From assembly GCA_028277845.1 (NCBI GenBank), contig JANQFL010000087.1:13704-77703 (forward strand): 64,000 bases of DNA, read 5' to 3'. Below are positions 4,465 to 21,197 of the stretch, one piece after another (within the stretch, counting starts at the first letter, position 1; each line of letters starts with the position of its first letter). The position numbers and the translations under genes were made by a program. The DNA is from Sneathiellales bacterium. GTDB lineage: Bacteria; Pseudomonadota; Alphaproteobacteria; JANQFL01. The notes beneath the pieces are model-generated. The model made no database searches. It saw only the letters and a list, made by a program, of their open reading frames with translations, and was not told where the DNA came from.

Positions 4465-4474
4465 TGTTCAGATC

Positions 4475-5350
4475 CTAGTCGTCCAGTTCATAGCCGACGG
4501 CACGGATCTCGGCCGCGAGTTCTTGTTCGATCAGCCGGCGTTGGTGCGCGTTTAAAGTCTGTTTCCAGCGATACAGCGGCGATTCACTCACCGTGGTCAT
4601 ATTGTCGTAAGACGAATTGGCGGCGATAGGTTTCCCCAACCGAGACGGTTGCAGAACGCAGGGATCGAAATCGATGCCGATGAAGTCGCACAGGCTGCGC
4701 ATGGTCTTTTCGGTATCTTGTACCAAATCCTCGTAACGCAGGCCGTAGGCGTTCGGCTCGGGAGAGATCCAGAACCGGTTGGCCACATTGCGCCACAGGC
4801 CGCAGAAATCAACGAGTTCATTGTCATCGAACGGCCGGTTGCGGGTCTTTTCGCGCAGTTTGGTGTGGCTGGCAAACGTGGCGCGCGGATCGCGGATCGA
4901 CACCACATACTTGGCCGGGCCGAAGATCTTCTCGACATAGGGAGTCGGCCGCTTGCAGATATTGGCGATATGATTGACCGTCACACCGCGCCGGGGATGG
5001 CCGCAGAACGACGGGAAATAGATCTCCTGAAATAAATCATAGAACTCTTGCAAATTGCGTACCGGTCCAACCCGGCGGCCCACTTTCTCGGTCAACTGTC
5101 CATATGCGCCTTCGCCGTGGATCATTGTAATCATGTCCTCGAGGCGCTGGTGAAAACCGGCCTCGCGCAGTTTTAGGCTTCGCGGCAGATAACGGTAGAG
5201 AGCGAAATAGGGCTGCTTGATTTCGTTTTTGTTGCAGGTATTCCAGTATTCGAACGGGAAGACGTTGCATGCGGGATGACCGTCCAGCAGATTGTTGGTC
5301 AACGTGCCGCCGGAGCGGGACATGGACACGATGGAGACGTTGGTGTTCAC
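4475..5350 (-). CDS. sulfotransferase (PAPS-dependent type)
   Basis: N-terminal 5'-PSB-like motif SMSRSGGT and 3'-PB-like SIRDPRA; 291 aa. Confidence 0.7.
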   Translation of the reverse strand: MNTNVSIVSMSRSGGTLTNNLLDGHPACNVFPFEYWNTCNKNEIKQPYFALYRYLPRSLKLREAGFHQRLEDMITMIHGEGAYGQLTEKVGRRVGPVRNLQEFYDLFQEIYFPSFCGHPRRGVTVNHIANICKRPTPYVEKIFGPAKYVVSIRDPRATFASHTKLREKTRNRPFDDNELVDFCGLWRNVANRFWISPEPNAYGLRYEDLVQDTEKTMRSLCDFIGIDFDPCVLQPSRLGKPIAANSSYDNMTTVSESPLYRWKQTLNAHQRRLIEQELAAEIRAVGYELDD

Positions 5351-6820: not shown

Positions 6821-8950
6821 CTAGACGAATTCGTTGAGGCCGGTCAGGCCGCGGTCGCCGCTGTGCAGGTCCTGGCCGTCGGGCGGCGGCACCAGGTGGC
6901 GGGCCTCGCCGGCATATTCGGGAATGCGGTAGAGGCGGCGAACGTAGATCTTCGACAGGATACGGCCGATGCCGATGACCGAATCGCCGTAGATTTCGAG
7001 AAAGTCGCGGGCGGTTTTCTTCTGTTCGTCGGTCAGATCGAATGAGATATCCGCCGGTTCGGCGAAGCGATAGTCGGCCACGTCGCGCGGCTGCAGGTCA
7101 TCGCTGAAGCGGATGACATCGAATTTGAATGCGCCGCTGGTCGAGGCGTCCAGATTATCGAACAAATGGCTCGCCCGCAGCCTGCCGAACTCGATCAGCT
7201 CGCGGCCCAATTCGATCGCCGCGGCGTCGACGCCCTTGTCGGTGAAATAATCGGTCAGCGTCTTGGTCGCGACCTCGGCCACCTCGTCGACCAAACGGAT
7301 CAGGCCGAGGGTCTTGTATTTGAAGATCAGGTTGGCGCCCAATTCGCCGTCGATATAGCGTTTGACCGTGTCGCGCTGGCGCACGAAGTCTTCCAGATCC
7401 TCGCGTTCGCCCCAAAGCTCCGCCTTGGTTTCGGCGAGGAAATCGGCGATCAGTTGATCGAAGCGGTCATTGCCGCGGAACGCCCAGATCCTTTCGATCC
7501 ATTCGTATTTCGAAAGGCTGAGCAGCTTGATCAGCCGCAGCACCTCCTTGTAGACGGCGTCGTTGTAAAACAGGTTGACGACCAGGTGCATGTGGCGGGC
7601 GCTGAGATATTCGTCGAAAGTGATGGCGTCGTTGCCGACGCAGATTTCCTCTACCTCAGCGGCGTTGATTGCCTCGCCGAGTACGTCGAAATAGCCGTAG
7701 CAGCGCGGCAGGACGCGATACCGATTGACCATCTTCCACTTGTCGACGCTTTCGCGCGTCGCCAGGTCGGTACCCGGCAGCAGCATCAGTTGAAACAGCG
7801 CCACGGTGTTGAAGTCGGCCTCGACGATGGTCCGTATGGTTTTCAGGTGCGCCTGCAGGCTGTCTCCCGGCAGACCGAGGATGATCTCGGAATAGCTGTT
7901 GGCGCCGATTTCGCTCGCCGCCAGGGCCAGGTCGAGAATTTCCTGCTCGTCGATGTTGTTGCGTTCGATGTTTTCCAGAACGTCCTTGTCGAGGCTCTGC
8001 ACCGATCCTGAAATGCGCAGCGAACCGCTGATGATGTTGGCGGCCTCAAGCACCCGGTGTTTTTGGTTCTTGCCGGTGGCGACGTTGATGTATTCGGGAA
8101 AACCGTACGTCTTCTGCACTTCGGCGATGGCGCGGCAGGTGTCGAGATCCTCCTTGTACATGCCGAAATTGGAGTCGGCGATGAACATGTCGGAGCGGGC
8201 CCGGCCGTTGCGGCGCAGTTCGGCCATGCGTGCGCCGATCAGGTTCATCTCGTCGCGCACCCGGTCGGTCTTGCCCTTGGCAACCTTGGAATAGTACTTG
8301 GTGCCCTCGACACAGAAGGTGCAGCGGAATGGACAGCCCCGGTTGGTCTGGATGATCGGCAGCATGACACCGTCGAAAAACTCGTCCATCAGCCCCTGAA
8401 GATAGGGTGACGGGATATCGGACAGATCGAGGCGCGGGGTGGTTTCCTGCGGTCCGTCGAAGCCGCCGTCCGCCATCAGGCGATGCACCGACGGCAAGCC
8501 GTGCGGTACGCCGCCCGGATCGAAGGCGCACGCCTCCAGCCGCTCGACGAGGTCGGCGAAGGCCGCCTCGCCCTCCTTGACGATGAAGAAATCGAACATG
8601 GGGTGGGCGCGGACGAATTCTTCCTGCTCGGCCGGATTTGTCGGATAGTTGGGGCCGCCGAACACGGTCACCACGCCAGGCAGCCTGCGCTTGATGACTG
8701 CCGCGAACTGGCTGCTCAGGTCCCGGTTCCAGATATAGTTGGAAAACCCGATCACCGCCGGTGCCGGTTCGTTGTCCAGGGCCGTGGCCAGCTTTTCCGG
8801 AAATTTGAACAGCCGGAATTGCGGCGGGTTAGGCCGCCTGCTGGCGGTATAACTGGCGATGCAGCCGATCGCCGCCGGCATGACGTCGGACGCAACGGTC
8901 TGCTGTGTATAGGTCAGGTCACATAGCCAGATCGACGGGGCTTCGGTCAA
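6821..8950 (-). CDS. B12-binding domain radical SAM protein
   Basis: CxxxCxxC motif NRGCPFRCTFC at 8312..8335. Start set at in-frame TTG 8950 preceded by GGAG 8 nt upstream; the ORF-track ATG at 9061 would overlap sqdB by 79 nt. A GTG at 9010 is an alternative. Confidence 0.7.
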   Translation of the reverse strand: MTEAPSIWLCDLTYTQQTVASDVMPAAIGCIASYTASRRPNPPQFRLFKFPEKLATALDNEPAPAVIGFSNYIWNRDLSSQFAAVIKRRLPGVVTVFGGPNYPTNPAEQEEFVRAHPMFDFFIVKEGEAAFADLVERLEACAFDPGGVPHGLPSVHRLMADGGFDGPQETTPRLDLSDIPSPYLQGLMDEFFDGVMLPIIQTNRGCPFRCTFCVEGTKYYSKVAKGKTDRVRDEMNLIGARMAELRRNGRARSDMFIADSNFGMYKEDLDTCRAIAEVQKTYGFPEYINVATGKNQKHRVLEAANIISGSLRISGSVQSLDKDVLENIERNNIDEQEILDLALAASEIGANSYSEIILGLPGDSLQAHLKTIRTIVEADFNTVALFQLMLLPGTDLATRESVDKWKMVNRYRVLPRCYGYFDVLGEAINAAEVEEICVGNDAITFDEYLSARHMHLVVNLFYNDAVYKEVLRLIKLLSLSKYEWIERIWAFRGNDRFDQLIADFLAETKAELWGEREDLEDFVRQRDTVKRYIDGELGANLIFKYKTLGLIRLVDEVAEVATKTLTDYFTDKGVDAAAIELGRELIEFGRLRASHLFDNLDASTSGAFKFDVIRFSDDLQPRDVADYRFAEPADISFDLTDEQKKTARDFLEIYGDSVIGIGRILSKIYVRRLYRIPEYAGEARHLVPPPDGQDLHSGDRGLTGLNEFV

Positions 8951-8982
8951 GTCATCTGCTCCACGCTGCAAGGCCGATCGGT

Positions 8983-10149
8983 CTATCGATCCGCTTTCTC
9001 GGACGACCACTGGATCCGTGGGTTCATCACGTTCCGGTCCACGAAGTCTACATGCCGGCATACCGTTTGGTACATGGCGTCCAACACGGCTTCCGTTAGA
9101 AGGTTAGGGCGCAATCCGAGATCGACAAGTTTCGAGTGCTTTGCGTTGTAGTAATGATCCTCCAATTCCACCCGGGGATTCTCCAGGTGGTCGATCTGTG
9201 TATCCTGCCCGTTGCGCTTCGCGGCAGCGACCACCATTTCGGCCAGTTGCAGGACCGAGAACTGTTCGGTGAACTGGTTGAAGACACGGAAATCGCCGCG
9301 ATCGGCCGGATTGTCGACCGCCAGGGCGACGCACTGGATGGTGTCCTTGATATTGAGGAAACCGCGCGTCTGGCCACCCTTGCCGTAAACCGTCAGGGGG
9401 CATCCGATCGCCGCCTGGACCAGAAATCGGTTCAGAACCGTGCCGAACACATCGTCGTAATGGAACGACGTCTCCAGGTCGGGGTGCAGCACGGTCTGAT
9501 CCGTCTCGATACCGTAAACGACTCCCTGGTTGAGGTCGGTCGCCCGCATGTCCCAAATCCGGCAGGTGAATTCGATATTGGCCGAATCGTGCACCTTGGA
9601 CAGGTGGTAAAAACTGCCGGGACGCTTGGGGAACAGGACCCGGTCCTTGCGGCCGTTGTGTTCCAGCTCCAGCCAGCCTTCCTCGATATCGATGTTCGGC
9701 GTGCCGTACTCGCCCATGGTGCCCAGCTTCACCAAATGTGCGTCCGGGCAATGAGCCCGCATGGCGAACAGGACGTTCATCGTGCCTTCGATATTGTTTG
9801 TCTGGGTGTAGACCGCGGTCGTTCTGTCCTGCATCGAATAGGGGGCGGAGGGCTGCTCGCCGTAGTGCACGATGGCGTCGGGCTTGAATTCCCGGATCAC
9901 CTTGTAGACGAAGCGATGGTTACACAGATCCCCGACCATCAGCGCGATGTCGTTACCGCTGATTTCCTTCCAGCGCCGGACGCGCCGGTGCAACGGTGGA
10001 ATGGCCGCCAGCGGCTCGATGCCTTCCTCCAACTCCCATTGCCGTTTGGCGAAATTGTCGACGATGGCAACCTCGTCGCCGCGGGCGGAGAAATGCATGG
10101 CCGTCGGCCAGCCCAGATAACCATCACCACCAAGAACCAATACACGCAT
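8983..10149 (-). CDS. sqdB: UDP-sulfoquinovose synthase (SqdB/SQD1 family)
   Basis: Long blocks match SQD1 as I recall it: GGDGYLGWPTAMH, VKLGTMGEYGTPNIDIEEG, FYHLSKVHDS, RATDLNQGVVYG, LTVYGKGGQTRGFL, FRVFNQFTEQFSV, HYYNAKH. Confidence 0.85.
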   Translation of the reverse strand: MRVLVLGGDGYLGWPTAMHFSARGDEVAIVDNFAKRQWELEEGIEPLAAIPPLHRRVRRWKEISGNDIALMVGDLCNHRFVYKVIREFKPDAIVHYGEQPSAPYSMQDRTTAVYTQTNNIEGTMNVLFAMRAHCPDAHLVKLGTMGEYGTPNIDIEEGWLELEHNGRKDRVLFPKRPGSFYHLSKVHDSANIEFTCRIWDMRATDLNQGVVYGIETDQTVLHPDLETSFHYDDVFGTVLNRFLVQAAIGCPLTVYGKGGQTRGFLNIKDTIQCVALAVDNPADRGDFRVFNQFTEQFSVLQLAEMVVAAAKRNGQDTQIDHLENPRVELEDHYYNAKHSKLVDLGLRPNLLTEAVLDAMYQTVCRHVDFVDRNVMNPRIQWSSEKADR

Positions 10150-10197: not shown

Positions 10198-10932
10198 CTA
10201 AAGTCGGGATCCGTCACTCATGTGAGGGAGTTCGATGGCGCCGCTCGACAGCAGCGCCTCCGCAATCGGGAGGTCTTCGGGACCGTCTAGGTCGAGGCCA
10301 TAGCGCGAGTCAATGCCAATTCCCGCGCAGGGCTCCGCATAAAACCCCGATCCATCGCGCAAGGCGTCCGTCCGCGCCGCGATCAGATTGCCGAACACCA
10401 TCAGTTTCGGCTTGTTCTGTTTCAGCCGTGCGCTGCCGCGTTCCTCGGCAAACAGAAAGCCGACCCGGCCGTCGGCATCCAGCTGCCTCTGGTTCCAGGC
10501 GTGGCTGTTGTGTGCCACGGCGATGACGTTGTGGGCCGATCGTGCCGCGCCGTCGCGTTCGAACACGCCCAGCAGTTCCTCGACATGGACGGGCAGAAGA
10601 AACGGCGATGTCGGTTGAATCAGCACGATGACGTCGGGCAGCGTTTCGCCCTGGCCGGCCGCGCGTTCGAGATATTCCCGCACTACGTCGTCGACCTTGA
10701 CCGCGTCGCCGCCCAGGTCGTCGGGCCGCCGATCCACGTCCACCCCGAGCGCTATTGCCCGTTGGGCGATGCGGTCGCTGTCCGTCGAGCAGACGATGCG
10801 GTCGAGGCGCCCGGAGGCGATCGCCGCCGTGATGCCGTAATCGAGCAGCGGCCGGCCGGCGACGGACACCAGGTTTTTCAACGGAATGCTTTTCGATCCG
10901 CCCCGCGCCGGGACGAAACCCCAGGCGTTCAT
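10198..10932 (-). CDS. acylneuraminate cytidylyltransferase family (CMP-nonulosonate synthetase, NeuA/LegF/PseF-like)
   Basis: N-terminal PARGGSKSIPLKN motif typical of CMP-NeuAc/CMP-Kdo-type cytidylyltransferases; start overlaps upstream stop (ATGA). Confidence 0.75.
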   Translation of the reverse strand: MNAWGFVPARGGSKSIPLKNLVSVAGRPLLDYGITAAIASGRLDRIVCSTDSDRIAQRAIALGVDVDRRPDDLGGDAVKVDDVVREYLERAAGQGETLPDVIVLIQPTSPFLLPVHVEELLGVFERDGAARSAHNVIAVAHNSHAWNQRQLDADGRVGFLFAEERGSARLKQNKPKLMVFGNLIAARTDALRDGSGFYAEPCAGIGIDSRYGLDLDGPEDLPIAEALLSSGAIELPHMSDGSRL

Positions 10933-11888
10933 CGGCCGGACTCCCTCGCCAGTGCGCGCAACGCCTTGTCGATGACGAAGGCTTCGGTCTCGCTCCAGGC
11001 GTCGTGGGTCGAACCGCCGATATGCGGCGTCAGGATCAGATTGTCGTGTTCCCGGGCATAGACGGCGACGCGGCTGTCACCGAACGACTGGGCAAAATCG
11101 GTGCGGTATTCGCCGTCGATGGTATCGAGGGCGGCGGCCTGGAGATGGCCCGATTCCAGCAGGTCGAGCAAGGCGTCCAGGTCCAGGAGTTCGCCGCGGG
11201 CCGTGTTGACCACCACGGCGCCCCGGGGCAGCGCCTCCAGCACGGCGCGCGAAACGAGGTTGCGGGTTCCGTCGTTGGCCGGTGCGTGCAGGGACAGGAC
11301 ATCGGAGCCGGCGGCCAGGGCTTCGATTGTGTCCACGCCGCCGTCGACGTAGGGATCGTAGTAGGCCGTCTTCATACCGATGGCTTCGGCGATGCGGGCG
11401 ACCTTGCGGCCCAGCCGGCCATAGCCGACAAGGCCCAGGCGCATACGGGACAACATGCGCGGCGCACCCCACGGCCGCCGGTTCCAGGCACCACTGGCCG
11501 CCGCCGCGTGAGCCGCCGGAATCCGCCGCCAGGCCGCCATCATCAGGCCGATGGCGTGTTCCGCCGTCGGTGTGATGCCGTCGAGAAACTCGGGCTCGTC
11601 GTGCAGGGCGCACACCGCGATATGTCTGCTCGCGGCGGCCTGGGCATCGATATGGGGAATGCCCGTGGTGTTGGACACGACCGCGCGCAGGCGTGGGCAG
11701 CGATCCATCTTGTCCGCGTCCACGGCAAATCCCAGGGGCGCGAACAGCACTTCGGTTTCGGCCAACATGTCCGCCGTGTCGTCGCGCGGGTCATCCAACG
11801 CCGTCAGGTCGAAACAGTCCCGAAGCCGGGCCAGGTTCTCGGGCTGGTAGCTCATGATGCGGTAATAGAGGGCGCGGGGACGGGGCAT
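10929..11888 (-). CDS. D-isomer-specific 2-hydroxyacid dehydrogenase family
   Basis: NAD-binding GLVGYGRLGRKVA and C-terminal catalytic region (LILTPHIGGST). Start set at Met 58 of the ORF (11888) to avoid overlap with the upstream gene; Met 69 (11855) is an alternative. Confidence 0.7.
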   Translation of the reverse strand: MPRPRALYYRIMSYQPENLARLRDCFDLTALDDPRDDTADMLAETEVLFAPLGFAVDADKMDRCPRLRAVVSNTTGIPHIDAQAAASRHIAVCALHDEPEFLDGITPTAEHAIGLMMAAWRRIPAAHAAAASGAWNRRPWGAPRMLSRMRLGLVGYGRLGRKVARIAEAIGMKTAYYDPYVDGGVDTIEALAAGSDVLSLHAPANDGTRNLVSRAVLEALPRGAVVVNTARGELLDLDALLDLLESGHLQAAALDTIDGEYRTDFAQSFGDSRVAVYAREHDNLILTPHIGGSTHDAWSETEAFVIDKALRALARESGR

Positions 11889-11895
11889 CGCGGAG

Positions 11896-13050
11896 TCAGT
11901 AGGCCAGGGTCTTGTCGACCGGTGGCAAAGGCGCGGCAAGGCATGCGGCAATCTGTTCGCCCGCGCGGCCGTCGCCGTAAACCGTATCGGAGGGATAGAC
12001 GCCGTGCGCGATCTGGCGCCGGGTTGCGGCGACGATCTCGTCGGTGTCGTGGCCGACATTGACGACGTTGCCGCCCTGCTGGCGGCCGCGCTGGCGGTTG
12101 CCGATATTGACCACCGGGACTCCGAGGAACGCGCTTTCGCGAATGCCGCTCGACGTGTTGCCGACCAGGCATACCGCGTTCTTGATCAACGCCGCATAAC
12201 GTACGAAGTTCAGCCCCGAAATCGTCCGCACCGGCGGGGCATCGCCGTTCGATTGCAGGGCACTTAAAGGGCCGGCCACCGATTGGGCGCCGGCGTCGTC
12301 GTTGGGCAGCACCCAGATAGTGGGAATGTTCAACTCCACCACGGCATCGGCGGTGTGCGTGAACTGGCGCCGGGCATCGTCGTATTCCGTCACGACGGGA
12401 TGCTGCGACACCACCAGGTATTCCGCCGTCAGATCGACCGCGGCGCCGTTGCCGTTGTCGGTCAAACACCGGTCCAAATCATCACCGGCGGCCAAGTCGA
12501 GACCGGCGAGCTGATCCAGACTCGGCGTGCCGACGACGTGCACGGTGTCGGCAATCTCGCCCAGGCGGATCAGCCGGTCGGCCGCGTCCCTGTTGGCCGG
12601 AAAATGAATGTGGGCCAATTTGGTGATGGCGTGCCGGATGCGTTCGTCGATGGAACCCGAAACCTCGCCGCCCTCCAGATGGGCGATGACGGTATTGCGG
12701 CACATCGCCGCCTGGGCGATCGACAGGCATTCGTACCGGTCGGCGATGACCATCACCACGTCGGGATCGAGCTCGGTCAGAATTCGGCCGAATGCGATCG
12801 TGCAACGGCCGGCCGACTCGACGACCGAGTCGAGCGTCTGCCCAGCGGCGATATAGTCCAGGGTGCGGTCGATGGTGAAACCATCCCATTCGATAACTTC
12901 GACAAAGGAGTCGTAGTCTTGCCCGAGCAGGATACCGCCCACGACCAACTGCAGGGACAAATCGGGGTGGCGCTGAATGGCCGCCATGGTCGATTTCATC
13001 TTGCCGTAATTGCCCCGCGTGGTCAGGACGATGCAGATGCGGCGACTCAC
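11896..13050 (-). CDS. UDP-N-acetylglucosamine 2-epimerase (hydrolysing), NeuC/LegG-like
   Basis: 384 aa; motifs IADRYECLSIAQAA and HLEGGEVSGSIDE typical of the UDP-GlcNAc 2-epimerase family. Confidence 0.75.
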   Translation of the reverse strand: MSRRICIVLTTRGNYGKMKSTMAAIQRHPDLSLQLVVGGILLGQDYDSFVEVIEWDGFTIDRTLDYIAAGQTLDSVVESAGRCTIAFGRILTELDPDVVMVIADRYECLSIAQAAMCRNTVIAHLEGGEVSGSIDERIRHAITKLAHIHFPANRDAADRLIRLGEIADTVHVVGTPSLDQLAGLDLAAGDDLDRCLTDNGNGAAVDLTAEYLVVSQHPVVTEYDDARRQFTHTADAVVELNIPTIWVLPNDDAGAQSVAGPLSALQSNGDAPPVRTISGLNFVRYAALIKNAVCLVGNTSSGIRESAFLGVPVVNIGNRQRGRQQGGNVVNVGHDTDEIVAATRRQIAHGVYPSDTVYGDGRAGEQIAACLAAPLPPVDKTLAY

Positions 13051-14081
13051 GGTTCGAGAACCTCCCAGGTCAGCGGCGCGTCTGCGGCGACCGGTTGCTT
13101 GAGGCGCTTGCCGATCACATCGGCCAGATCACCGGGCGAGATCCCGGTGCCGGGCCGTTTGGCGGCGACATCGGTTTCGGCGATCACGTGACCGGCCGGC
13201 AGATCGTTGCGGGCAACCAGGGATTTCAGCGCCCATTCCATGCCCGGCCGCTCGCTGGCCGCCGGTTCCTTGCGGCCATGCCCGAGCATGGTCTCGACCC
13301 GTCGGATATCGGCCACCAATTGCGGCAGATCCTCGGGGCCGGCCGAGACCTTCCAGTCCTGGGCATTGGGCACGTCGCGCAGAATGGTGATGTGCTTCTC
13401 GATGATCTGGGCGCCGCGGGCGACCGCCGCAAGCACGGCCAAACCGTCTTCCGTGTGATCGGAATAACCGACCGGGCCGGGGAACGCCGTGCGTATATGG
13501 TCCATCGCACTCAGATTGACATCGGCCGGCGGTGCCGGATAGCTGGTGACACAATGCAGCAGGGCGATATCGGCGCATCCGGCGTACAGGCAGGCGTTCG
13601 TCGCTTCGGCGATATCGTCCAGGCCGTACATGCCGGTCGAGATGATCATCGGTTTGCCAAGCGCCGCCAGACGGGCCAGGAAGGCTGGATTGCCGCGCTC
13701 GCCCGAGCCGACCTTGACCGCCGGCACATCCAGGGTTTCGAGCCACGGGATACGGGTCTCGTCATGGGCGGTCGCCATGAACAACAGCCCGCGGGCTTCG
13801 CAGCGTTCTTTCAGTTCGACCGCCTGATCCAAGGTCAGGTTGCGCGGCCGCAACCGGTCCTGCCAGTCGGCGGCCCGGTTGGAGATCAGTGCCTCGACGT
13901 CGAAAAACTGGGTCTTGAAGACATCCGCGTTGGCATCGGCCGCCAGGTCCACCAGGTCACGGGCCAAGCCCATGTCGCCGAAATGGGCGACGCCGGCTTC
14001 GGCGATGAACAGGCAGGGTGCGTCACCGCCGACCCGGCGATCGCCGATGCGGAACGAAGACACCGGCTGAAGGCTGTTCAT
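13047..14081 (-). CDS. N-acetylneuraminate synthase family (NeuB/LegI/PseI-like nonulosonic acid synthase)
   Basis: Start at internal Met (MNSLQPV) giving ATGA overlap with the upstream ABC gene stop; NeuB-like TIM-barrel region plus C-terminal SAF-like domain. Confidence 0.8.
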   Translation of the reverse strand: MNSLQPVSSFRIGDRRVGGDAPCLFIAEAGVAHFGDMGLARDLVDLAADANADVFKTQFFDVEALISNRAADWQDRLRPRNLTLDQAVELKERCEARGLLFMATAHDETRIPWLETLDVPAVKVGSGERGNPAFLARLAALGKPMIISTGMYGLDDIAEATNACLYAGCADIALLHCVTSYPAPPADVNLSAMDHIRTAFPGPVGYSDHTEDGLAVLAAVARGAQIIEKHITILRDVPNAQDWKVSAGPEDLPQLVADIRRVETMLGHGRKEPAASERPGMEWALKSLVARNDLPAGHVIAETDVAAKRPGTGISPGDLADVIGKRLKQPVAADAPLTWEVLEP

Positions 14082-15925
14082 GAGGACCCGCCCTGGCCCG
14101 TGGCGGCCACCGGGGGCTGCTGCGCGAGGGCATGAAACAGCTCGGTCGACCGGTACAGCGACTGATAGGTGCCCTGTGCCGCCAGGCGGCCGTCTTCGAG
14201 GACGAAAATGGTATCGCACTCGGCGATGGTGGAAATGCGGTGGGCGACGGTGATGGTGGTCACTTCGCCTTTCAGTTTGGCCACCGTATCCTGGATCAGT
14301 TTTTCGGTGCCGGTGTCGAGCGAACTTGTCGCCTCGTCCAGCACAAGGATATCGGGCGCGTCATACAGCGCCCGGGCAATGGTGACGCGCTGGCGCTGAC
14401 CGCCGGAAAGCCGCAGGCCGCGGTCTCCCATCACCGTGTCGAGGCCGTCATCCAACTCGGCGACCACGTCGGTCAAGCCGGCCTTGTCGAGGGCGCGGCG
14501 TACCTTGTCGTTGTCGATGTCGGCGTCGGGCACGCCAAAGGCGACATTGCGCCGCAGTGTATCGTTGGCGATGAACGGCGACTGAGGCACATAGCCAATT
14601 CGGCCGAACCAGTTCGATCGGGCGAAGTCGGTGATGTCCGTGTCATCCAAACGCACGTGACCGTCGGTCGGCGGCAAAACACCGAGCAGGATGTCGACGA
14701 ACGTCGACTTGCCCGCGCCCGATGGGCCGACCACGCCGACCGATTGACCGCGGGCTATCGCCAGGGAAATGCGATCGAGCGCGGTGGCGGTCGTGCCCGG
14801 GTAGGAAAAACTGACGGCATCGAAGTGGATGGCCGACCACTCGTCCGGTACCTTGGCGCCACCACTGGGCTTCCCCCATTCCGTTTCCGCCGCCGCCAGT
14901 TCGGCGCGCAAGTCGGCGAGTCCCCTGGTATAGGCCCTGACCTTGGCCAGTTTCGTGATGGTACCGACAACACGGGACAGGGCAGGGATAAGACGGGCGC
15001 TGATCAATCCCAGCAAAGCGACCTGCGAGGCGATTTCGCCGGTGCTGGCACCGGCACCGAACAGGGACACCGCGACGATGATCAGTCCGAGCTGGCCGGT
15101 CAACAGCAGCCCCATCGGCACGGCCCGTTGCAGCAGTTGCGCCTTCATACGGCTTGTGGCGGCCCTGTGATAGAGACGTGTGTACATGCTGGTGAAGAAC
15201 CCTTGACGGGCCTTGACCTGGATATCCTTGATGCCGTTGACCGCCTCGACGCCAAGCTGGCTGCAATGCAGCCATTGGGTCCGTTCGTCGGCGGCGTAGC
15301 GGGCGATGCGTGGGCGAATGACCGCCATCATCATGACGGCGGCGAAGGCGATAATCGCGGCGACGGCAACGATCGCCTGCCACGGCAAGGCAACCGCCAC
15401 CACCGCAAAGGCAAAGACAAGCAGCAGCGAGGTGTACACCAGCTCCATGACCGTCGGATACAGCGACACCGCCGTGTTGGTCGGATCTTTGTAGAGCCGA
15501 TGGGACAGCATCGCCGCATTCTGGCGCAGGAACCAGACATAGGGTGCCTTGAGGCAGCGATTGAGCAGGTCGTTGGCCAGATAACGCCCGATACGGACAC
15601 TGAGGATTTCGGTCATGAACAGCGAGAAATAGCTGCCGATAACGCCCAGAACCAGCAGGCTCGCGGCGATAAGGCCGAGCATCTGGATCAACTCCCGTTC
15701 CGTGTCGGTCGCCAGGATATCGGCGATCTTTTGCAGCCATTCGCTGCGCTGAAGCATGGTCGGTTCGACCACCAGCGTCACGAAAGGCGCCGCCGAGGAT
15801 AGGGCGACCATTTCCAGGGCGCTGGTGAACACGAACAGCAGCAGGATCGCAGCCGCGGCAGTCTTCTGCCGGGCCGTCAGGAACGACCAGCCGATGGCGA
15901 CGATATTGGTTGACGGTTTCGTCAT
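14078..15925 (-). CDS. ABC transporter, fused permease/ATP-binding exporter
   Basis: N-terminal hydrophobic helices; Walker A GPSGAGKST, signature LSGGQRQR, Walker B ILVLDEATS. Start at Met 21 (MTKPSTNIV) avoids overlap with the upstream gene. Confidence 0.85.
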   Translation of the reverse strand: MTKPSTNIVAIGWSFLTARQKTAAAAILLLFVFTSALEMVALSSAAPFVTLVVEPTMLQRSEWLQKIADILATDTERELIQMLGLIAASLLVLGVIGSYFSLFMTEILSVRIGRYLANDLLNRCLKAPYVWFLRQNAAMLSHRLYKDPTNTAVSLYPTVMELVYTSLLLVFAFAVVAVALPWQAIVAVAAIIAFAAVMMMAVIRPRIARYAADERTQWLHCSQLGVEAVNGIKDIQVKARQGFFTSMYTRLYHRAATSRMKAQLLQRAVPMGLLLTGQLGLIIVAVSLFGAGASTGEIASQVALLGLISARLIPALSRVVGTITKLAKVRAYTRGLADLRAELAAAETEWGKPSGGAKVPDEWSAIHFDAVSFSYPGTTATALDRISLAIARGQSVGVVGPSGAGKSTFVDILLGVLPPTDGHVRLDDTDITDFARSNWFGRIGYVPQSPFIANDTLRRNVAFGVPDADIDNDKVRRALDKAGLTDVVAELDDGLDTVMGDRGLRLSGGQRQRVTIARALYDAPDILVLDEATSSLDTGTEKLIQDTVAKLKGEVTTITVAHRISTIAECDTIFVLEDGRLAAQGTYQSLYRSTELFHALAQQPPVAATGQGGSS

Positions 15926-15950
15926 GGATTCAGTTTGGAGTTCGCCCGCC

Positions 15951-17654
15951 TCAATAATCGGCGATGAACTTGTAGCTGTCCGCACGGTCCATCTTGTAGG
16001 AATGGTAGTGCATCCGGTCGGAATGGAACCAGCCGTGCAGCAGATCGGTTTCCTGTTGCAGCGGGGCGGGATTGTCGCTCACGACCTTCCGGTAATCCTC
16101 ATACAGGGCGAAGATCGCCGAATCGTCGCCGGTGACGAAACTGTCCTGCCAATCGGGATGGCAGAAGAACCAACCGGCAAAGACCTTGGCGCTCTCCCGT
16201 GTCTTGGCCAGATCCAGGTCGTTCCACCAGGGCCGTTTGAGGCAATCGATGTATTCTTCGCGGGATCGGCACCAGGTGCCGACGCCGCAATCGTGGAACC
16301 AACCGCGGTCCGCCATCAACGACGGCTTGCCGAGATACGCGTATTCGATGGCGGCGGTGCCGGTACAGGTGATGACGGCGTCGACGCAGTCCATCACCGC
16401 CCGGCCGTTCCAGCCCTGGGGCGCTATCTGGACATGGCCGGCCATGCGCTCGCCGATATAGTCGGCCAACGACGCGCCGCCGTACCACAGATCGCAGGGG
16501 TGGGGCTTGAACAGCCAGTAGACGTCGGTGTTTTGCTTGGCGATATCGACCGTCAGGGAAATCCAGTCGAGATAGTCTGTGAAGTTGTTGAGCCCGAACA
16601 CGTGCGGATAGTCGAACCAGTTGGAGGCATAGACGCCGACGATGGGCTTGTCCTCGGTCCAGCCGAAGCGCTGGCGCAATTGCTCCCGGTCGATGTGGTC
16701 GTTGGCGTTGATGTAGGCATACAAGGTGCCCAGATCCAACGTCTTGCCGTTGAGGCGGTTGTCCAGGTACGAGCCGCCGACCTCGGACAGGGACCCCAGC
16801 TGTTGCGGGCTCAGGTTTCGGGCGTGTTCGACCGGCAGGCGGTCGACCCAATCGAAGATGGCTTCGCGCGAGCGGATCTTCCAGTATCGCGGCACGCCGT
16901 AGCAACCGTACAGCACCACCGCCGGAATACCGAGCGATAGGGCGACATAAGCCAGCGCGCCATAACGGAACTCGATGACATGGCTGAGGATCAGCAGGGA
17001 CGTGCGTTCGGCCGACAATATGCGTTCGGCGGCGTCGATGCTCAGCAAGGCTTCGGCGACGTGGTCCTCCAGTTTCGGGTCCGCCATGTCGATGGTGCCG
17101 AGGCGGCGACGCTTGAGAATGCCGTCATAGACCCAGCCGCCGGGAAAGCCGTGCGGCAGGTCCCATTCCATCATGTCTTCCGGACGATCGGTCATATCCA
17201 GAAGCTGTCGTGCCCGGCGGCGGGCGTCCTTGAGGCCGGAACGGAAGTGTTTTTCAAACCGCACCGTGTCATTGATGCCGAGACGGTTCATGGTCTCCTT
17301 GGCCTCGCGGGTGCGCCACTTGCCGACGATGCCGACCTCGTTGGCGGTCGGCAGCCCGAGGGCCTTGCGCAACAAGGTCAGGCGCCACCAGTAGTTCGGA
17401 TTGAACCACATGCCGTCGATCAGCACCCGGTCCGGGAACGTCTTGTCCGTCGACTCGGCGATCTGCCGGAACAGATTCTCCGCCGGAATTCGCTGGCGTT
17501 GAATCTCCTGCCAGCGCGCCCGTTCGGACGGTGTGATTCGGCGGCGCAGCATTTGGCCCTGGGCGTAAAGGTGCTTCGCCGCGGTTAACATGCGCGAAGA
17601 GGCCTTCGACAAGGGCGACGGACGGGTATTTGATTCTGAGGTGGAAACGGTCAT
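15951..17654 (-). CDS. capsule-polysaccharide-biosynthesis-like protein (KpsC/KpsS/LpsZ-like fold with KPHP motif); candidate glycosyltransferase
   Basis: 567 aa with WLFKPHP motif. Family assignment tentative; start could also be Met 22 (17591). Confidence 0.45.
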   Translation of the reverse strand: MTVSTSESNTRPSPLSKASSRMLTAAKHLYAQGQMLRRRITPSERARWQEIQRQRIPAENLFRQIAESTDKTFPDRVLIDGMWFNPNYWWRLTLLRKALGLPTANEVGIVGKWRTREAKETMNRLGINDTVRFEKHFRSGLKDARRRARQLLDMTDRPEDMMEWDLPHGFPGGWVYDGILKRRRLGTIDMADPKLEDHVAEALLSIDAAERILSAERTSLLILSHVIEFRYGALAYVALSLGIPAVVLYGCYGVPRYWKIRSREAIFDWVDRLPVEHARNLSPQQLGSLSEVGGSYLDNRLNGKTLDLGTLYAYINANDHIDREQLRQRFGWTEDKPIVGVYASNWFDYPHVFGLNNFTDYLDWISLTVDIAKQNTDVYWLFKPHPCDLWYGGASLADYIGERMAGHVQIAPQGWNGRAVMDCVDAVITCTGTAAIEYAYLGKPSLMADRGWFHDCGVGTWCRSREEYIDCLKRPWWNDLDLAKTRESAKVFAGWFFCHPDWQDSFVTGDDSAIFALYEDYRKVVSDNPAPLQQETDLLHGWFHSDRMHYHSYKMDRADSYKFIADY

Positions 17655-17687: not shown

Positions 17688-18617
17688 TTAGACTTCATAT
17701 CCCAACGACGTCAGATCGTGGTCGAACATGGTGGCCAGCTTGCGGTTCGATTCGCGCCATTTCTCCCGCGCCCAATCGGGGACATGCCGGTCCACTTGCG
17801 CCAACGTCGTATCGCGCTTGTTGGGAAAACGCGATGACAATAGGCGCGCCGCCTGGCGGGCCCGCAGATGAGCCGAAAACGGCAATATGCCGGCCTCGTT
17901 GTGCTGGGTCTGGCAGAACCGGTTGGCAAACCGGTACAAACCACGCCACGGTTCGGAGAACGACACATTGACCGGTTCCTGACGCGGTTCGAAGTCCGGG
18001 TCGACACCGATGAATTCAAAGATGTCGCGGAAAAACCGGGTCCGATTGGCCTTGAGGTCCTCGAAGAACAGCACCTTGAAGTTTTCGCGGCCGAACTTCT
18101 CCTGGGCATAGGCGACGTAGCGGTCGTAGCACAGCTTCTCGAAGATATTGAGATGGCCGGTGCGCTCGAAATTACCACGCGGAATGTTCATGCTGATGGC
18201 CGGCGACGCGTGCTCGGACAGGAAGCCCTTCACATCGAGTACGCCGCCTTCCATGACATAGGCGTTCCAGGCCGAGCGCACGTAGGATTTCTGTTCGCGC
18301 AGGACGATGAACGCCTTGACGCCCGGCATAAGGTCGCTCAGCAGGTCGATGATCATGCGCGCACCGGCGCCGTCGAAGGCATGACCCGACATCGCTTCGG
18401 CGCTGAACACGGATTTCTTTGCCGCCGGCTTGGCATTCGAGAACGGCATGGCCCGCAGCTTGTCGAGGAACGCCGCACGGTCGAATTCAAAGGAATAGTC
18501 CCGCAATTCGAAGAACAGCCCCTTGTGATCGCGCCAGGAAAAATTGATCTCCGGATGCGCGTCCATGGCCACCATCTGCAGGTACGACGATCCCGTCTTG
18601 GGCAGGCCAAGATGCAA
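17688..18617 (-). CDS. sulfotransferase (second copy, different family from 4475..5350)
   Basis: PAPS-binding-like LHLGLPKTGSSYLQ motif. The ORF-track N-terminus overlaps the upstream gene by ~200 nt and is Arg/Ser/Pro-rich, so a non-ATG start near 18617-18656 is inferred (TTG at 18617 chosen; CTG at 18632 or 18656 possible). Confidence 0.55.
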   Translation of the reverse strand: MHLGLPKTGSSYLQMVAMDAHPEINFSWRDHKGLFFELRDYSFEFDRAAFLDKLRAMPFSNAKPAAKKSVFSAEAMSGHAFDGAGARMIIDLLSDLMPGVKAFIVLREQKSYVRSAWNAYVMEGGVLDVKGFLSEHASPAISMNIPRGNFERTGHLNIFEKLCYDRYVAYAQEKFGRENFKVLFFEDLKANRTRFFRDIFEFIGVDPDFEPRQEPVNVSFSEPWRGLYRFANRFCQTQHNEAGILPFSAHLRARQAARLLSSRFPNKRDTTLAQVDRHVPDWAREKWRESNRKLATMFDHDLTSLGYEV

Positions 18618-18657
18618 GACGTCGAACGGCAGGGCGTTATCCGATCGGCTAGGCAGG

Positions 18658-19365
18658 TTATTGGGCAACGGTGTTCTGCTCCAAGGTCGATGACTTGAGC
18701 GCGCCGATGACCTCGTGCGCGCTCGCCGTGGCCCAGGACGGGCCCAGTGTATCCATGATGCGGTGGGCGCGTTCCAGATCCTCCACGGTATCGACGGAGA
18801 CGTTTTGCTGCGACAGGTCTTCATCGAGGCAAACATTTTCAATGCGAAACGCATCGGTGTAACGGTACATGTGGCGGGTCAGGTGTTCGCGGTCTTCCGG
18901 GTCGTCGCTGGCGGCAATGGCGCGCTGCAGCGCCTGTGTCTGGATCACTTCGACGGTCATGCCGACGGGAAAGGAACGGGGAAACGCATTCGTCGCCAGG
19001 TCTGCACCGGTGTTCTGCTGCAAATCCCGCAACTGTGTCATCACATCGATCGGCACGAACGGACTGTCGCCGGTCACACGGATAAACGTCTCCAGGCCAT
19101 GTAATTGCGCACATGCCAGCGCCCGGCCGGCAACATCATCGCACGATCCACGAAACACGCCGACCTGTTCGTTATCCGCCAGTTCCGCAATGGCGTCGTC
19201 GACCGGTCGGTCCGAGGTGGCGACGAAAATCGGCAGCGCGGGGTGCAAGGCGCGCAACCGTTCGAGCACCCGGCTCAACAACGGTTTTCCGGCCAGGGCG
19301 ATGAGGGCCTTGCCCGGCAGGCGCACCGAGTCGAAGCGGGAAAAGACGAGAATTCCGGCGGTCAT
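18658..19365 (-). CDS. cytidylyltransferase, SpsF/PseF-like (CTP_transf_3 type)
   Basis: Start at internal Met (MTAGILVFSRFDSVRLPGKAL), the characteristic N-terminus of this family; the upstream 104 codons of the ORF are low-complexity. Confidence 0.7.
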   Translation of the reverse strand: MTAGILVFSRFDSVRLPGKALIALAGKPLLSRVLERLRALHPALPIFVATSDRPVDDAIAELADNEQVGVFRGSCDDVAGRALACAQLHGLETFIRVTGDSPFVPIDVMTQLRDLQQNTGADLATNAFPRSFPVGMTVEVIQTQALQRAIAASDDPEDREHLTRHMYRYTDAFRIENVCLDEDLSQQNVSVDTVEDLERAHRIMDTLGPSWATASAHEVIGALKSSTLEQNTVAQ

Positions 19366-20777: not shown

Positions 20778-21197
20778 ATGCCTGTCATGACGGCGGAACA
20801 GATTCACAGCTTCCTGGAAGAACATTTTCCGCAGATTTCCCATCTCGATATGCGCATCGAGGATGTCCGGAAAAACGGCATCACGGTCCGGATTCCCTAT
20901 CACGAACGGCACCTGCGTCCCGGCGGCACCATATCCGGGCCGACCATGATGGCGTTGGCCGACGCCGGCACCTATCTGGCCATATTGGCCCAGCTCGGTC
21001 CGGTCGCCGAGGCCGTCACCACCAATCTGAACATCAATTTCCTCAGGAAACCCGGGCAAAACGACATCGTCGCCCAATGCAATATCCTGAAACTGGGCAA
21101 GCGGCTGGCGGTCGGCGAGGTCACCATTTTCAGCGCCGGCGAAGACGACCCCGTCGCCCACGCCACCATGACCTATTCGATCCCGCCCCGTGAATAG
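20778..21197 (+). CDS. PaaI-family (hotdog fold) thioesterase
   Basis: 139 aa; GGAG 8 nt upstream of the ATG; hotdog-thioesterase-like core (HGGTISGPTMMALADAG). Confidence 0.65.
   Translation: MPVMTAEQIHSFLEEHFPQISHLDMRIEDVRKNGITVRIPYHERHLRPGGTISGPTMMALADAGTYLAILAQLGPVAEAVTTNLNINFLRKPGQNDIVAQCNILKLGKRLAVGEVTIFSAGEDDPVAHATMTYSIPPRE

Follow-up and report, generated by a model that had tools for sequence, protein, structure and literature searches.

Tannerella and Campylobacter make N-glyceroyl nonulosonates for which no genetic basis is known (PMC5378307). In Agl3 residue R101 is essential, and without sulfite the enzyme releases UDP-glucose-5,6-ene (PMC4388408). In the D-2-hydroxyacid dehydrogenase family, a Thr-Gly backbone pair binds the substrate carboxylate (PMC6303947). 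The window analysed here, i.e. the whole stretch of 64,000 nucleotides, carries a nonulosonic acid (NulO) gene cassette of which no description was found in the literature searched. Positions 10198-14081 are interpreted, with a probability of roughly 0.55 for this composite reading, as the central part of a conserved cassette of five to six genes for a CMP-activated, tailored nonulosonic acid of the Neu5Ac type. That the cassette is dedicated to NulO and that its dehydrogenase (DH) belongs to the pathway, coupled to NeuA, can be stated with high confidence.

Organization of the gene cluster

The contiguous NeuB, NeuC and NeuA genes, with a D-2-hydroxyacid dehydrogenase between NeuC and NeuA, were found as a sequence-only reading of the locus had described them (Table 1). 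They are transcribed in the order NeuB, NeuC, DH, NeuA as a tightly coupled block. Overlaps of 4 nt occur at the ABC exporter/NeuB (ATGA), NeuB/NeuC (GTGA) and DH/NeuA (ATGA, the NeuA start overlapping the DH stop) junctions. The junctions indicate that DH starts at the ATG at 11888, 7 nt past the NeuC stop, and not at the longest-ORF start at 12059; the overlapping stop/start attributed to DH is therefore real towards NeuA and absent from its 5' end.

Table 1. Genes of the minus-strand cluster, by position in the window
Feature	Position	Strand	Length or domain matches
Sulfotransferase, same glycan cluster	4475-5350	-	Sulfotransfer_3 69 bits, Sulfotransfer_1 44 bits
B12-binding radical-SAM (KedN5-like), putative C-methyltransferase	6821-9061	-	Pfam Radical_SAM + B12-binding
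SQD1/SqdB paralogue (UDP-sulfoquinovose-synthase-like SDR), NulO-linked 'SFHYD' clade	8983-10149	-	388 aa
NeuA-type CMP-nonulosonate synthetase	10198-10932	-	244 aa
NulO-module-specific D-2-hydroxyacid dehydrogenase (DH)	10929-11888	-	319 aa
NeuC-like hydrolysing UDP-HexNAc 2-epimerase	11896-13050	-	384 aa
NeuB-like nonulosonate synthase (PEP + aldose condensation)	13047-14081	-	344 aa
ABC exporter (fused permease/ATPase; HepA/MsbA/PglK-like)	14078-15985	-	ABC_membrane + ABC_tran
Putative CMP-ulosonate transferase (distant KpsS/KpsC 'Capsule_synth' relative)	15951-17654	-	
Sulfotransferase-like	17688-18668	-	Sulfotransfer_1, Sulfotransfer_3, E ~8e-4, weak, below Pfam cut-offs
Second CTP_transf_3 cytidylyltransferase-like	18658-19365	-	235 aa, CTP_transf_3 72 bits
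NAD-dependent epimerase/dehydratase (SDR)	19370-20437	-	Pfam Epimerase 140 bits, GDP_Man_Dehyd 110 bits

The SDR at 19370-20437 is the first gene of the minus-strand cluster, and the genes to the right of it are on the plus strand and unrelated. Neither a DegT-type aminotransferase nor an N-acetyltransferase was found among the minus-strand cluster genes at 1-20437; the absence noted earlier is thus confirmed for this span and unproven for the cluster as a whole, which extends past the left end of the window. The boundary drawn around 10198-14081 was too tight: downstream of NeuA the cassette continues with the SQD1-like and B12 radical-SAM genes, both of which change the likely product. The longest ORF of the radical-SAM gene overlaps the 3' end of the SQD1-like gene by 79 nt and its true start is uncertain; the protein scored 145 bits on NF033712 (cut-off 700).

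The ABC exporter scored 300 bits on HepA_fam and 286 bits on MsbA, in both cases below the cut-off. The putative CMP-ulosonate transferase itself gave no Pfam match; among its homologues, 15 of 113 carry PF05159, two are named capsule polysaccharide biosynthesis proteins by JGI, and those in Nitrospira, SAR11 and Tagaea loci adjoin NeuA. The transferases that recur with the cassette are TagF-like or KpsS/C-like, both CMP-leaving-group types. Several GT-B/GT4-type glycosyltransferases are also present within the window cluster.

Identity of the NeuB-, NeuC- and NeuA-like proteins

The NeuB-like protein matched Pfam NeuB (217 bits) and SAF (51 bits). On the NeuB model TIGR03569 it reached 298.5 bits, below the cut-off of 399.65, as against 201.7 bits on the PseI model, and its best PDB matches were the Neu5Ac synthases 6ncs and 1xuu (167-169 bits; PseI 98). 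The NeuC-like protein matched Pfam Epimerase_2 (220 bits), exceeded the cut-off of the hydrolysing NeuC family TIGR03568 (347.5 versus 235.9 bits) and was nearer to the epimerase domain of human GNE (4zht, 217 bits) than to the legionaminic acid enzyme LegG (5xvs, 175 bits). The NeuA-like protein matched Pfam CTP_transf_3 (64 bits); its best NCBIfam match was PseF at 92.5 bits (cut-off 205.7), and its best PDB matches were the CMP-Neu5Ac synthetases 1eyr and 6ifd. The NeuB, NeuA and SQD1-like proteins all scored under curated equivalog cut-offs. These comparisons favour the sialic-acid (NeuCBA) type of module over the Pse type. The previously suggested sialic-acid-like sugar is upheld in this broad sense; a strict 'sialic acid' assignment is not, since the NeuB-like protein reached no curated equivalog cut-off.

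Conservation of the cassette

DH orthologues were found within NulO modules, next to NeuA, NeuB or NeuC, in 76 loci spread over about ten groups of phylum level, and this recurrence in independent loci places the arrangement far beyond chance. The hosts belong to Alpha-, Beta-, Gamma- and Deltaproteobacteria, Nitrospirota, Patescibacteria, Omnitrophota, Rokubacteriota, Chloroflexota, Bacteroidota, Marinimicrobia and SAR11. Identity of the orthologues was 42-73%, except for two SAR11 proteins (27-28%). Of the 47 loci flanked on both sides by 8 kb or more (full-flank loci), all 47 contained NeuB, 46 NeuA, 45 NeuC and 37 the SQD1-like gene; an ABC exporter homologue lay within 10 kb in 25. NeuA follows at most 400 nt downstream of DH in 59 of the 76 loci. 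With B, C, D, A, S and R denoting NeuB, NeuC, DH, NeuA, SQD1-like and radical-SAM genes, the order is permuted yet contiguous (BCDAS, SBCDA, CDASB, BCDSA, CSADB, BCDRAS). The radical-SAM gene is embedded in about a fifth of the loci, in orders such as BCDRAS, DARSB, RDAS and BCDASR.

In three MAGs, DH and NeuA form one ORF. DH-cytidylyltransferase fusions were recorded in L033, L034, L050, P0128, P0133, P0245 and P0173, with both domain orders among metagenome proteins. The L050 fusion, one of the three from MAGs, bears a second, separate CTP_transf_3 domain behind DH-NeuA, and separate second CTP_transf_3 genes occur in seven loci; the second CTP_transf_3 protein of the window showed no significant BLASTP similarity to that domain or to the seven-locus copies.

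Function of the dehydrogenase

DH matched Pfam 2-Hacid_dh_C (146 bits) and 2-Hacid_dh (34 bits), and no NCBIfam equivalog was reached. The catalytic R231/E260/H289, the GxGxxG motif, D178 and the T75-G76 carboxylate loop are invariant. With its catalytic triad of Arg, Glu and His, its NAD motif and the Thr-Gly carboxylate-binding pair retained, DH looks catalytically competent at the motif level. Other NulO modules contain paralogues of DH, at 27-38% identity, that share its family-specific motifs.

A housekeeping SerA/GhrB-type enzyme, present in the cluster by chance, might be assumed from the source annotation of DH homologues ('D-3-phosphoglycerate dehydrogenase') and from the best PDB relatives, which are PGDHs. 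The sequence-only reading had regarded such an identity as contrary to a role in the module. However, the PGDH score was 156 bits against a cut-off of 454, the ACT domain is absent, and in the alignment Pro and Asn occupy the positions of the PGDH phosphate-binding arginines. NulO genes accompany DH in all 47 full-flank loci. The housekeeping identity is effectively refuted by the low PGDH score, the NulO linkage and the NeuA fusions in several lineages; DH is not a housekeeping enzyme.

The fusion to cytidylyltransferases points to an action of DH on the sugar itself, one of the two roles proposed earlier. The other, in which DH forms glycerate or lactate as a free D-2-hydroxy acid that then becomes an acyl or ether substituent of the sugar, is in keeping with a bona fide 2-oxo-acid-type sequence and with the N-glyceroyl nonulosonates of Tannerella and Campylobacter (PMC5378307). 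This glyceroyl or lactyl supply is nevertheless very unlikely, because DH has no conserved companion among acyltransferases, ligases, carrier proteins or deacetylases (only 10 loci contain a deacetylase) and the pathway, having no aminotransferase, would offer no free amine to acylate. It also leaves the CMP-synthetase fusions in both orders unexplained, and the many invariant Arg, Trp, Tyr and Phe residues and an extra lid insertion suggest a large substrate.

As a best guess, though a doubtful one, DH may act on the open-chain sugar immediately ahead of cytidylylation, at the C1-C2 keto-acid end, as this end holds the only carbon of the pathway that adjoins a carboxylate. This placement is chemically awkward: between NeuB and NeuA no productive step for a 2-oxo-acid reductase is obvious, and reduction at C2 would destroy the anomeric centre required by NeuA. 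Alternatively, DH would reduce C2 of the nonulosonate to an acyclic 3-deoxy-nononic acid; once activated by the cytidylyltransferase, this acid would feed TagF-like polymerases that make a teichoic-acid-like polymer. CDP-ribitol synthesis (Bcs1, TarIJ) follows such a reductase-plus-cytidylyltransferase logic, and here, too, fusions of a reductase with a cytidylyltransferase recur, as do TagF-like enzymes (30 copies in 20 loci). However, a secondary alcohol carrying CMP as a monoester is no activated donor, the residues with which NeuA-type enzymes form ketosides appear intact, and the DH-less syntenic clusters L084 and L089 use homologous transferase and exporter genes. The acyclic product is rated slightly lower even than the acyl supply.

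The SQD1 paralogue and possible sulfonation

The SQD1-like protein aligned full-length with Arabidopsis SQD1 (1qrr; 512 bits, 57% identity) and reached 464 bits on NF041015 (cut-off 575). It retains the catalytic T145/M146/Y182/H183/K186 and differs from SQD1 in R229 (S), D231 (H) and R36 (K). In a neighbour-joining tree, all 53 module-linked copies form one distinct clade with S/H (or similar) at R229/D231 and with the SQD1 catalytic residues retained, and the other clade comprises Arabidopsis SQD1 and all 20 copies of the R229/D231 type (19 stand-alone and a second copy in L067). At the site matching Agl3 R101, every module copy has Pro. With two arginines lost in this way (R229 is always replaced), sulfite binding might be absent. 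Moreover, the cassette is present in Patescibacteria which, to our knowledge, usually lack sulfite-producing sulfate assimilation, and this counts against sulfonation. On the other side, modules with the SQD1-like gene and without DH occur (L084, L089, L096, L098, L106), which implies that S+C+B+A is self-sufficient, as fits a redox-neutral sulfite addition. Sulfonation of the product is therefore proposed only tentatively, at somewhat less than even odds.

The paralogue could also lie outside the NulO pathway and provide the same glycan with an independent building block, UDP-sulfoquinovose or a closely similar compound; the NeuCBA+DH sugar would then be unsulfonated and co-localisation would reflect a shared polymer, not a shared pathway. 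The identity to the plant enzyme, the complete set of catalytic residues, the glycosyltransferases of the cluster and the lack of the SQD1-like gene within 10 kb in 10 of the 47 DH loci agree with this. Yet the gene directly adjoins a module gene in 42 of the 48 loci that have it and in many lineages stands between NeuA and NeuB or between DH and NeuA (CDASB, BCDSA, CSADB). A separate clade with altered residues is needless for ordinary UDP-sulfoquinovose, L067 carries both SQD1 types, and the cassette has no conserved UDP-sugar transferase of the SqdX kind. This explanation is considered unlikely.

More unlikely still is a non-sulfonating paralogue that stops at the UDP-hexose-5,6-ene or 6-deoxy-keto stage, the keto group being reduced by DH to give a sialic-acid-like sugar that is 9-deoxy and bears no 7-amino group. 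The release of UDP-glucose-5,6-ene by Agl3 is a precedent (PMC4388408), the residue losses of the module clade and the co-occurrence of DH and SQD1-like genes are consistent with it, and DH would gain a logical job. However, the DH-less modules indicate that the product of the paralogue needs no DH, the keto group would not be beside a carboxylate while DH keeps its 2-oxo-acid carboxylate loop, and the fusion partner of DH is the cytidylyltransferase and not the SQD1 paralogue. As 10 of the DH loci lack the SQD1-like gene and several SQD1 modules lack DH, neither enzyme is obligatory.

Proposed pathway and comparison with known systems

For the preferred reading, the Neu5Ac-type cassette, we infer the substrate of the SQD1 paralogue, the sulfonation, the order of steps and the reaction of DH as follows. 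The SQD1 paralogue would alter a UDP-hexose (most likely UDP-GlcNAc) at C6; the most parsimonious assumption is the chemistry of SQD1, in which sulfite addition gives a 6-deoxy-6-sulfonate. The NeuC-like enzyme would then remove UDP and epimerise C2, and the NeuB-like enzyme would condense the free sugar with PEP to a 9-modified Neu5Ac analogue. DH, as an NAD-dependent 2-oxo/2-hydroxy-acid oxidoreductase physically partnered with the NeuA-like enzyme, would act on this nonulosonate, the latter enzyme would activate the sugar with CTP, and in this window the B12 radical-SAM enzyme would add a C-methyl group. The KpsS/C-like transferase and the ABC exporter would use and then export the product, destined for a capsule-like, sulfated surface glycan. 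Summarizing, the product is probably a CMP-activated Neu5Ac-type sugar that is tailored, and possibly sulfonated, at C9, bears a C-methyl group and has been acted on by DH jointly with the activating enzyme. Compared with described members of the sialic-acid-like class it probably represents a new, possibly sulfonated, variant, since the cassette adds two unusual enzymes, the dedicated dehydrogenase and a protein related to the plant sulfolipid enzyme.

Organization of the gene cluster

The genes at positions ~1-20437 are all encoded on the minus strand and make up a single glycan-biosynthesis cluster, truncated by the left edge of the window; to the right of 20437, unrelated plus-strand content follows. 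The contiguous block of NeuB, NeuC, D-2-hydroxyacid dehydrogenase (DH) and NeuA genes proposed in the sequence-only reading was confirmed by the gene calls and by direct reading of the junctions. The ABC exporter and NeuB genes overlap in ATGA, NeuB and NeuC in GTGA, and DH and NeuA again in ATGA, while spacers of 7 nt and 48 nt separate NeuC from DH and NeuA from the SQD1-like gene, respectively. The stop/start overlap claimed for the dehydrogenase gene therefore holds on its downstream side, but not upstream. Downstream of the radical-SAM gene, the cluster continues with glycosyltransferases, a sulfotransferase, a further SDR and a methyltransferase. Magnetovibrio and other Rhodospirillales are the nearest named relatives.

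Features of the glycan cluster and of two genes beyond it (window coordinates)
Feature	Position	Strand	Remarks
SDR epimerase/dehydratase	19370-20437	-	cluster member
Second CTP_transf_3 protein	18658-19365	-	cluster member
Sulfotransferase-like protein	17688-18668	-	weak match
567-aa protein	15951-17654	-	no Pfam match
Fused ABC exporter	14078-15985	-	
NeuB-like	13047-14081	-	NeuB and SAF domains
NeuC-like	11896-13050	-	hydrolysing UDP-GlcNAc 2-epimerase model
DH (2-hydroxyacid dehydrogenase)	10929-11888	-	both 2HADH Pfam domains
NeuA-like	10198-10932	-	CTP_transf_3
SQD1-like SDR	8983-10149	-	full-length SQD1 similarity
B12-binding radical-SAM protein	6821-9061	-	KedN5-like, putative C-methyltransferase
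Sulfotransferase	4475-5350	-	clear match
4HBT thioesterase	20778-21197	+	just beyond the cluster, apparently unrelated
PhaC-type polyhydroxyalkanoate synthase	24064-26310	-	748 aa, long N-terminal extension; outside the cluster, apparently unrelated

The type of nonulosonic acid

The NeuB protein belongs to its family by both domains (PF03102, 217 bits; PF08666, 51 bits; both above the cut-offs), and its closest solved relatives are Neu5Ac synthases. Its score on the N-acetylneuraminate synthase equivalog TIGR03569 was 298.5 bits, below the cut-off of 399.65, and its score on the PseI model, 201.7 bits, was below 340.25. NeuC exceeded the cut-off of TIGR03568 (347.5 against 235.9 bits) and reached 69.7 bits on the model of the non-hydrolysing WecB; the human GNE epimerase domain is its closest solved relative, followed by the legionaminic enzyme LegG. 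NeuA matched CTP_transf_3 with 63.9 bits and, among equivalogs, scored highest on PseF (92.5 bits against a cut-off of 205.7), and the nearest solved relatives are CMP-Neu5Ac synthetases. No DegT-type aminotransferase or N-acetyltransferase was detected among the cluster genes at 1-20437, a cluster cut at the window's left end. Membership of the legionaminic or pseudaminic pathway was not found either, the LegB model giving 23 bits on the SQD1-like protein. These matches of NeuC, NeuB and NeuA, together with the lack of aminotransferase and N-acetyltransferase genes in the cluster as far as it extends in the window, support a backbone of the Neu5Ac type and not of the legionaminic or pseudaminic type. 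The preference of the sequence-only reading for a sialic-acid-like sugar is therefore upheld, whereas its interpretation as a whole is supported in part. The locus is not a canonical CMP-Neu5Ac cassette composed of NeuC, NeuB and NeuA only, because DH, an SQD1 paralogue and a radical-SAM gene lie embedded in it, as they do in most related loci.

The dehydrogenase and its link to NeuA

DH is a member of the D-2-hydroxyacid dehydrogenase family (PF02826, 146 bits; PF00389, 34 bits). Across 13 orthologues, the catalytic R231, E260 and H289, the GxGxxG motif G155-G160, the pair T75-G76 and Asp178 of the NAD-binding part are invariant. In the 2HADH family, the substrate carboxylate is held by the backbone amides of a small residue and a glycine (PMC6303947), and Thr75-Gly76 of DH is the equivalent of this pair. 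Judged by its motifs, DH is apparently a complete and active member of the family. As family-specific features it has the motif 'SNTTG[IV]PHI' and two inserts, one of five residues preceding 'ITPTAEH' and a lid-like one between Glu260 and His289.

The distribution of DH was determined in a scan with one genome per species, which returned 78 loci, 76 of them with a substantial DH match. They span Alpha-, Beta-, Gamma- and Deltaproteobacteria, Magnetococcales, Nitrospirota, four Patescibacteria lineages, Omnitrophota, Rokubacteriota, Chloroflexota, Bacteroidota, Marinimicrobia and Pelagibacteraceae. Carriers available in culture include Desulfatibacillum alkenivorans DSM 16219 (L057), Pelagibius sp. 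7325 (L013) and Magnetovibrio sp. PR-2 (P0004). Neighbouring genes were counted in the 47 loci with at least 8 kb on either side of DH; spurious antisense 'families' produced by simple ORF clustering in high-GC loci were left out. NeuB was present in all 47, NeuA in 46 and NeuC in 45. Among the 76 loci, NeuA lies at most 400 nt downstream of DH in 59. Gene order is permuted among lineages while contiguity is kept. In three MAGs, DH and NeuA constitute one ORF, and both DH-CTP_transf_3 and CTP_transf_3-DH orders occur in metagenome proteins. One of these MAGs, of Omnitrophota, fuses a second cytidylyltransferase domain behind DH-NeuA (816-aa ORF, L050:10001-12451); this domain has no significant similarity to the second CTP_transf_3 copy of the window cluster.

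Other nonulosonic acid (NulO) modules contain more distant DH paralogues (27-38% identity) that keep the DH motifs; among these modules are those of SAR11 and the second module within the same Patescibacteria loci. Two such Patescibacteria loci (L044 and L047) contain two complete NulO modules each, every module with its own 2HADH paralogue. Genes for TagF-like GT-B proteins, four to five per locus, are interleaved with them, an arrangement that suggests a polymer of two distinct nonulosonates. SAR11 single-cell genomes (L074:5-4930, L075:7869-12797) encode the entire cassette in a divergent form, ordered NeuB-NeuC-DH-SQD1-NeuA; its SQD1 paralogue is of the 'SFHYD' type, the clade tied to NulO modules.

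The sequence-only reading had left room for an unrelated housekeeping enzyme. SerA identity was ruled out, as DH scored 156 bits against a cut-off of 454, has 319 aa and no additional (ACT/ASB regulatory) domain, and is linked to NulO genes; moreover, its Pro51 and Asn73 align with the positions of the phosphate-binding arginines of PGDH. A merely accidental neighbour is likewise excluded by the NulO genes of the fully flanked loci and by the fusions with NeuA, and DH can be regarded as an enzyme of the pathway.

The fusions indicate a cytidylyltransferase as the partner of DH, and we infer that DH is a nonulosonate-specific oxidoreductase acting with NeuA. Our commitment goes no further than this, because simple reduction at C2 would be unproductive. 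Since 2HADH chemistry requires a carbon that bears, or is next to, a carboxylate, the reacting carbon would be C2 of the open-chain sugar, and action at the C1-C2 end is tentatively considered. Another carbon of the sugar is a rather doubtful site, and a small acid, such as would furnish the acyl substituent first suggested for DH, is an improbable substrate.

A separate clade of SQD1 paralogues

The SQD1-like protein of the window aligns with Arabidopsis SQD1 over the whole length (512 bits, 57% identity) and retains Thr145, Met146, Tyr182, His183 and Lys186. On the UDP-sulfoquinovose synthase equivalog, however, it reached 464 bits against a cut-off of 575, lacks R229/D231, and falls into a separate clade with a NulO context. 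An SQD1-like gene was found within 10 kb of DH in 37 of the 47 fully flanked loci. Of 48 loci with such a gene, 42 have it directly next to a module gene. It is often wedged between module genes, as in the orders CDASB, BCDSA and CSADB (B, NeuB; C, NeuC; D, DH; A, NeuA; S, SQD1-like; R, radical-SAM).

In the reciprocal scan, which started from SQD1, homologues with at least 64% identity lay in or beside NulO genes wherever the contig shows neighbours, while most of those with 57-62% identity are stand-alone genes. In all 53 module-linked copies, Ser/His (rarely Phe/Asn and similar) occupy the positions of Arg229/Asp231, residues present in the plant enzyme and in all 20 copies of the canonical type (19 stand-alone and a second copy in L067). 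Arg36 is replaced by Lys in most module-linked copies, and all of them have Pro where Agl3 has Arg101. The latter position was rejected as a clean clade marker, because Pro also occurs in 8 of the 20 canonical-type copies. A neighbour-joining tree separates the module-linked from the R229/D231-type copies without exception, and the switch to S/H is a simple marker for telling the two SQD1 clades apart in genome annotation. Both types occur beside one NulO module of a Syntrophaceae MAG (L067), with an 'SFHYD' copy beside DH and a canonical 'RFDFD' copy beside NeuC (3402-4553 and 8856-10016). The stand-alone copies from soil and peat metagenomes (L104-L159), on contigs that do not look phototrophic, are flanked by GT21-like, ArnT-like and AsnB-like genes, with NulO genes absent from their surroundings; they possibly represent a distinct sulfoquinovose-lipid or glycan system.

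The substrate of the paralogue is presumably UDP-GlcNAc. The replacement of Arg by Ser and of Asp by His might provide space for the N-acetyl group or, alternatively, alter the choice of nucleophile. A SqdX-like UDP-sugar transferase is not among the genes conserved with the cassette, and mainly for this reason we assign the paralogue to the CMP-sugar pathway itself rather than to a parallel route.

Radical-SAM protein, transferases and sulfotransferases

About a fifth of the loci have a B12 radical-SAM gene within the module (BCDRAS, DARSB, RDAS, BCDASR). In the window it lies immediately downstream of the SQD1-like gene, and its KedN5-like product scored 145 bits against a cut-off of 700. 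The 567-aa protein has a Capsule_synth domain in 15 of 113 homologues, which is the domain of the KpsS/KpsC CMP-Kdo transferases, and its relatives adjoin NeuA in Nitrospira, SAR11 and Tagaea loci. TagF-like GT-B proteins were found in 20 loci, with as many as five in a single Patescibacteria locus, and eight loci have KpsS-like proteins; enzymes of both kinds use donors with a CMP leaving group. Since the cluster that contains the SQD1 paralogue also encodes two sulfotransferases, one of them a weak match, an O-sulfate may be present on the glycan besides the possible C-sulfonate.

A proposed pathway and its product

Four combinations of module genes exist (BCA, BCAS, BCDA and BCDAS). Modules of S, C, B and A occur that have no additional reductase, so the most economical chemistry would be a redox-neutral, SQD1-type addition of sulfite. 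In the proposed pathway, the SQD1 paralogue would modify UDP-GlcNAc at C6, NeuC would hydrolyse and epimerise the product, NeuB would condense it with PEP and NeuA would activate it with CTP, and the radical-SAM enzyme would contribute a methyl group. The product would be a CMP-activated C-sulfonated sialic acid, 5-acetamido-3,5,9-trideoxy-9-sulfo-non-2-ulosonic acid, here also C-methylated and tailored by DH. This reading is given a probability of roughly one in three. The predicted CMP-9-deoxy-9-sulfo-Neu5Ac (C20H31N4O18PS) would give an [M-H]- ion at 677.102, or at 691.118 when C-methylated.

The ions of Magnetospirillum at m/z 679.198, 693.214 and 707.230 differ from these values and were ruled out as the sulfonated product; the corresponding CMP-ulosonic acids carry two N-acetyl groups (bioRxiv 10.64898/2026.04.20.719630). 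The same source describes unexplained C10 CMP-ulosonic acids of Magnetospirillum (bioRxiv 10.64898/2026.04.20.719630), which a C-methylase could explain, although this is a lead only, with no direct link established. That untargeted CMP-sugar survey left out formulas with both N and S (bioRxiv 10.64898/2026.04.20.719630), so a compound containing both would have been filtered out. A full-text literature search found no paper linking NeuB or NeuA with a 2-hydroxyacid dehydrogenase or a sulfoquinovose synthase, and the Leptospira NulO paper makes no mention of a dehydrogenase.

Nonulosonic acids cap bacterial surfaces and govern phage, host and immune recognition, and to our knowledge their described diversity comes almost entirely from pathogens. 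The present cassette is conserved among environmental bacteria from about ten phylum-level groups, some SAR11, Nitrospira and Patescibacteria among them. Its gene families, motif-level competence, conserved but permuted gene content, DH-cytidylyltransferase fusions and separate SQD1 clade are established by the analysis. The feature is real, widespread and uncharacterised, and two of its tailoring enzymes have no characterised counterpart in sialic-acid biochemistry. The fusions define a testable new function in the 2-hydroxyacid dehydrogenase family. On the sulfonated-sugar reading, DH would also represent a new 2HADH subfamily working in complex with CMP-sugar synthetases. Should the SQD1 paralogue sulfonate its substrate, the result would be a new C-sulfonated sugar, extending sulfoquinovose-type chemistry beyond sulfolipids and archaeal N-glycans. 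It would also imply an unrecognised sulfonate pool and a new, strongly anionic cell-surface cap belonging to a sugar class so far undescribed.

Comparison with known systems

The NeuC-NeuB-NeuA pathway of E. coli K1 and Neisseria meningitidis uses the same three families in one operon, likewise without the set of 4,6-dehydratase, aminotransferase and acetyltransferase. The window, however, adds two or three enzymes, its NeuB and NeuA fall below the equivalog cut-offs, and it has neither NeuD nor NeuS, with a KpsS/C-like transferase in place of a polysialyltransferase. Compared with the UDP-sulfoquinovose synthases SQD1, SqdB and Agl3, the SQD1-like protein has 57% identity to SQD1 over the full length and keeps the catalytic Thr/Met/Tyr/His/Lys set, whereas the module clade is distinguished by R229S, D231H, R36K and Pro at Agl3-R101, and stands always in NulO modules, never adjoining sulfolipid-type transferases.

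The coupling of DH to NeuA resembles several systems. The CDP-ribitol enzymes Bcs1 (H. influenzae) and TarI/TarJ likewise join, as a pair or a fusion, an NAD(P)-dependent oxidoreductase and a cytidylyltransferase encoded in a surface-polymer locus, where TagF-like enzymes are often found; there, however, an SDR/MDR is combined with IspD and a ketose phosphate, here a 2HADH with CTP_transf_3 and presumably a keto acid. NeuA of E. coli K1 and of group B Streptococcus has a fused C-terminal O-acetylesterase that edits sialic acid, and the DH-NeuA fusions are analogous to it, although a hydrolase is used there and an oxidoreductase here, from unrelated domain families. An uncharacterised cytidylyltransferase-aldo-keto-reductase gene of a Vibrio Pse cluster likewise couples an oxidoreductase with a cytidylyltransferase (PMC7371886). 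None of these, Bcs1, TarIJ, the Vibrio gene and the NeuA esterase, uses a 2HADH.

B12 radical-SAM C-methyltransferases such as Fom3, which acts on cytidylyl-hydroxyethylphosphonate, and GenK methylate hydroxylated carbons of activated substrates. The window protein shares with them the B12-binding and radical-SAM architecture and a pathway with a cytidylylated intermediate, at the low score already mentioned. With group-2 capsule assembly, which combines KpsS/KpsC with an ABC exporter, the window shares a protein distantly related to the Capsule_synth family, an ABC exporter and a dedicated supply of CMP-ulosonate. No KpsD/E was seen in the window cluster, the exporter is a fused half-transporter of the MsbA/HepA type and not KpsMT, and the sugar is a C9 ulosonate in place of Kdo.
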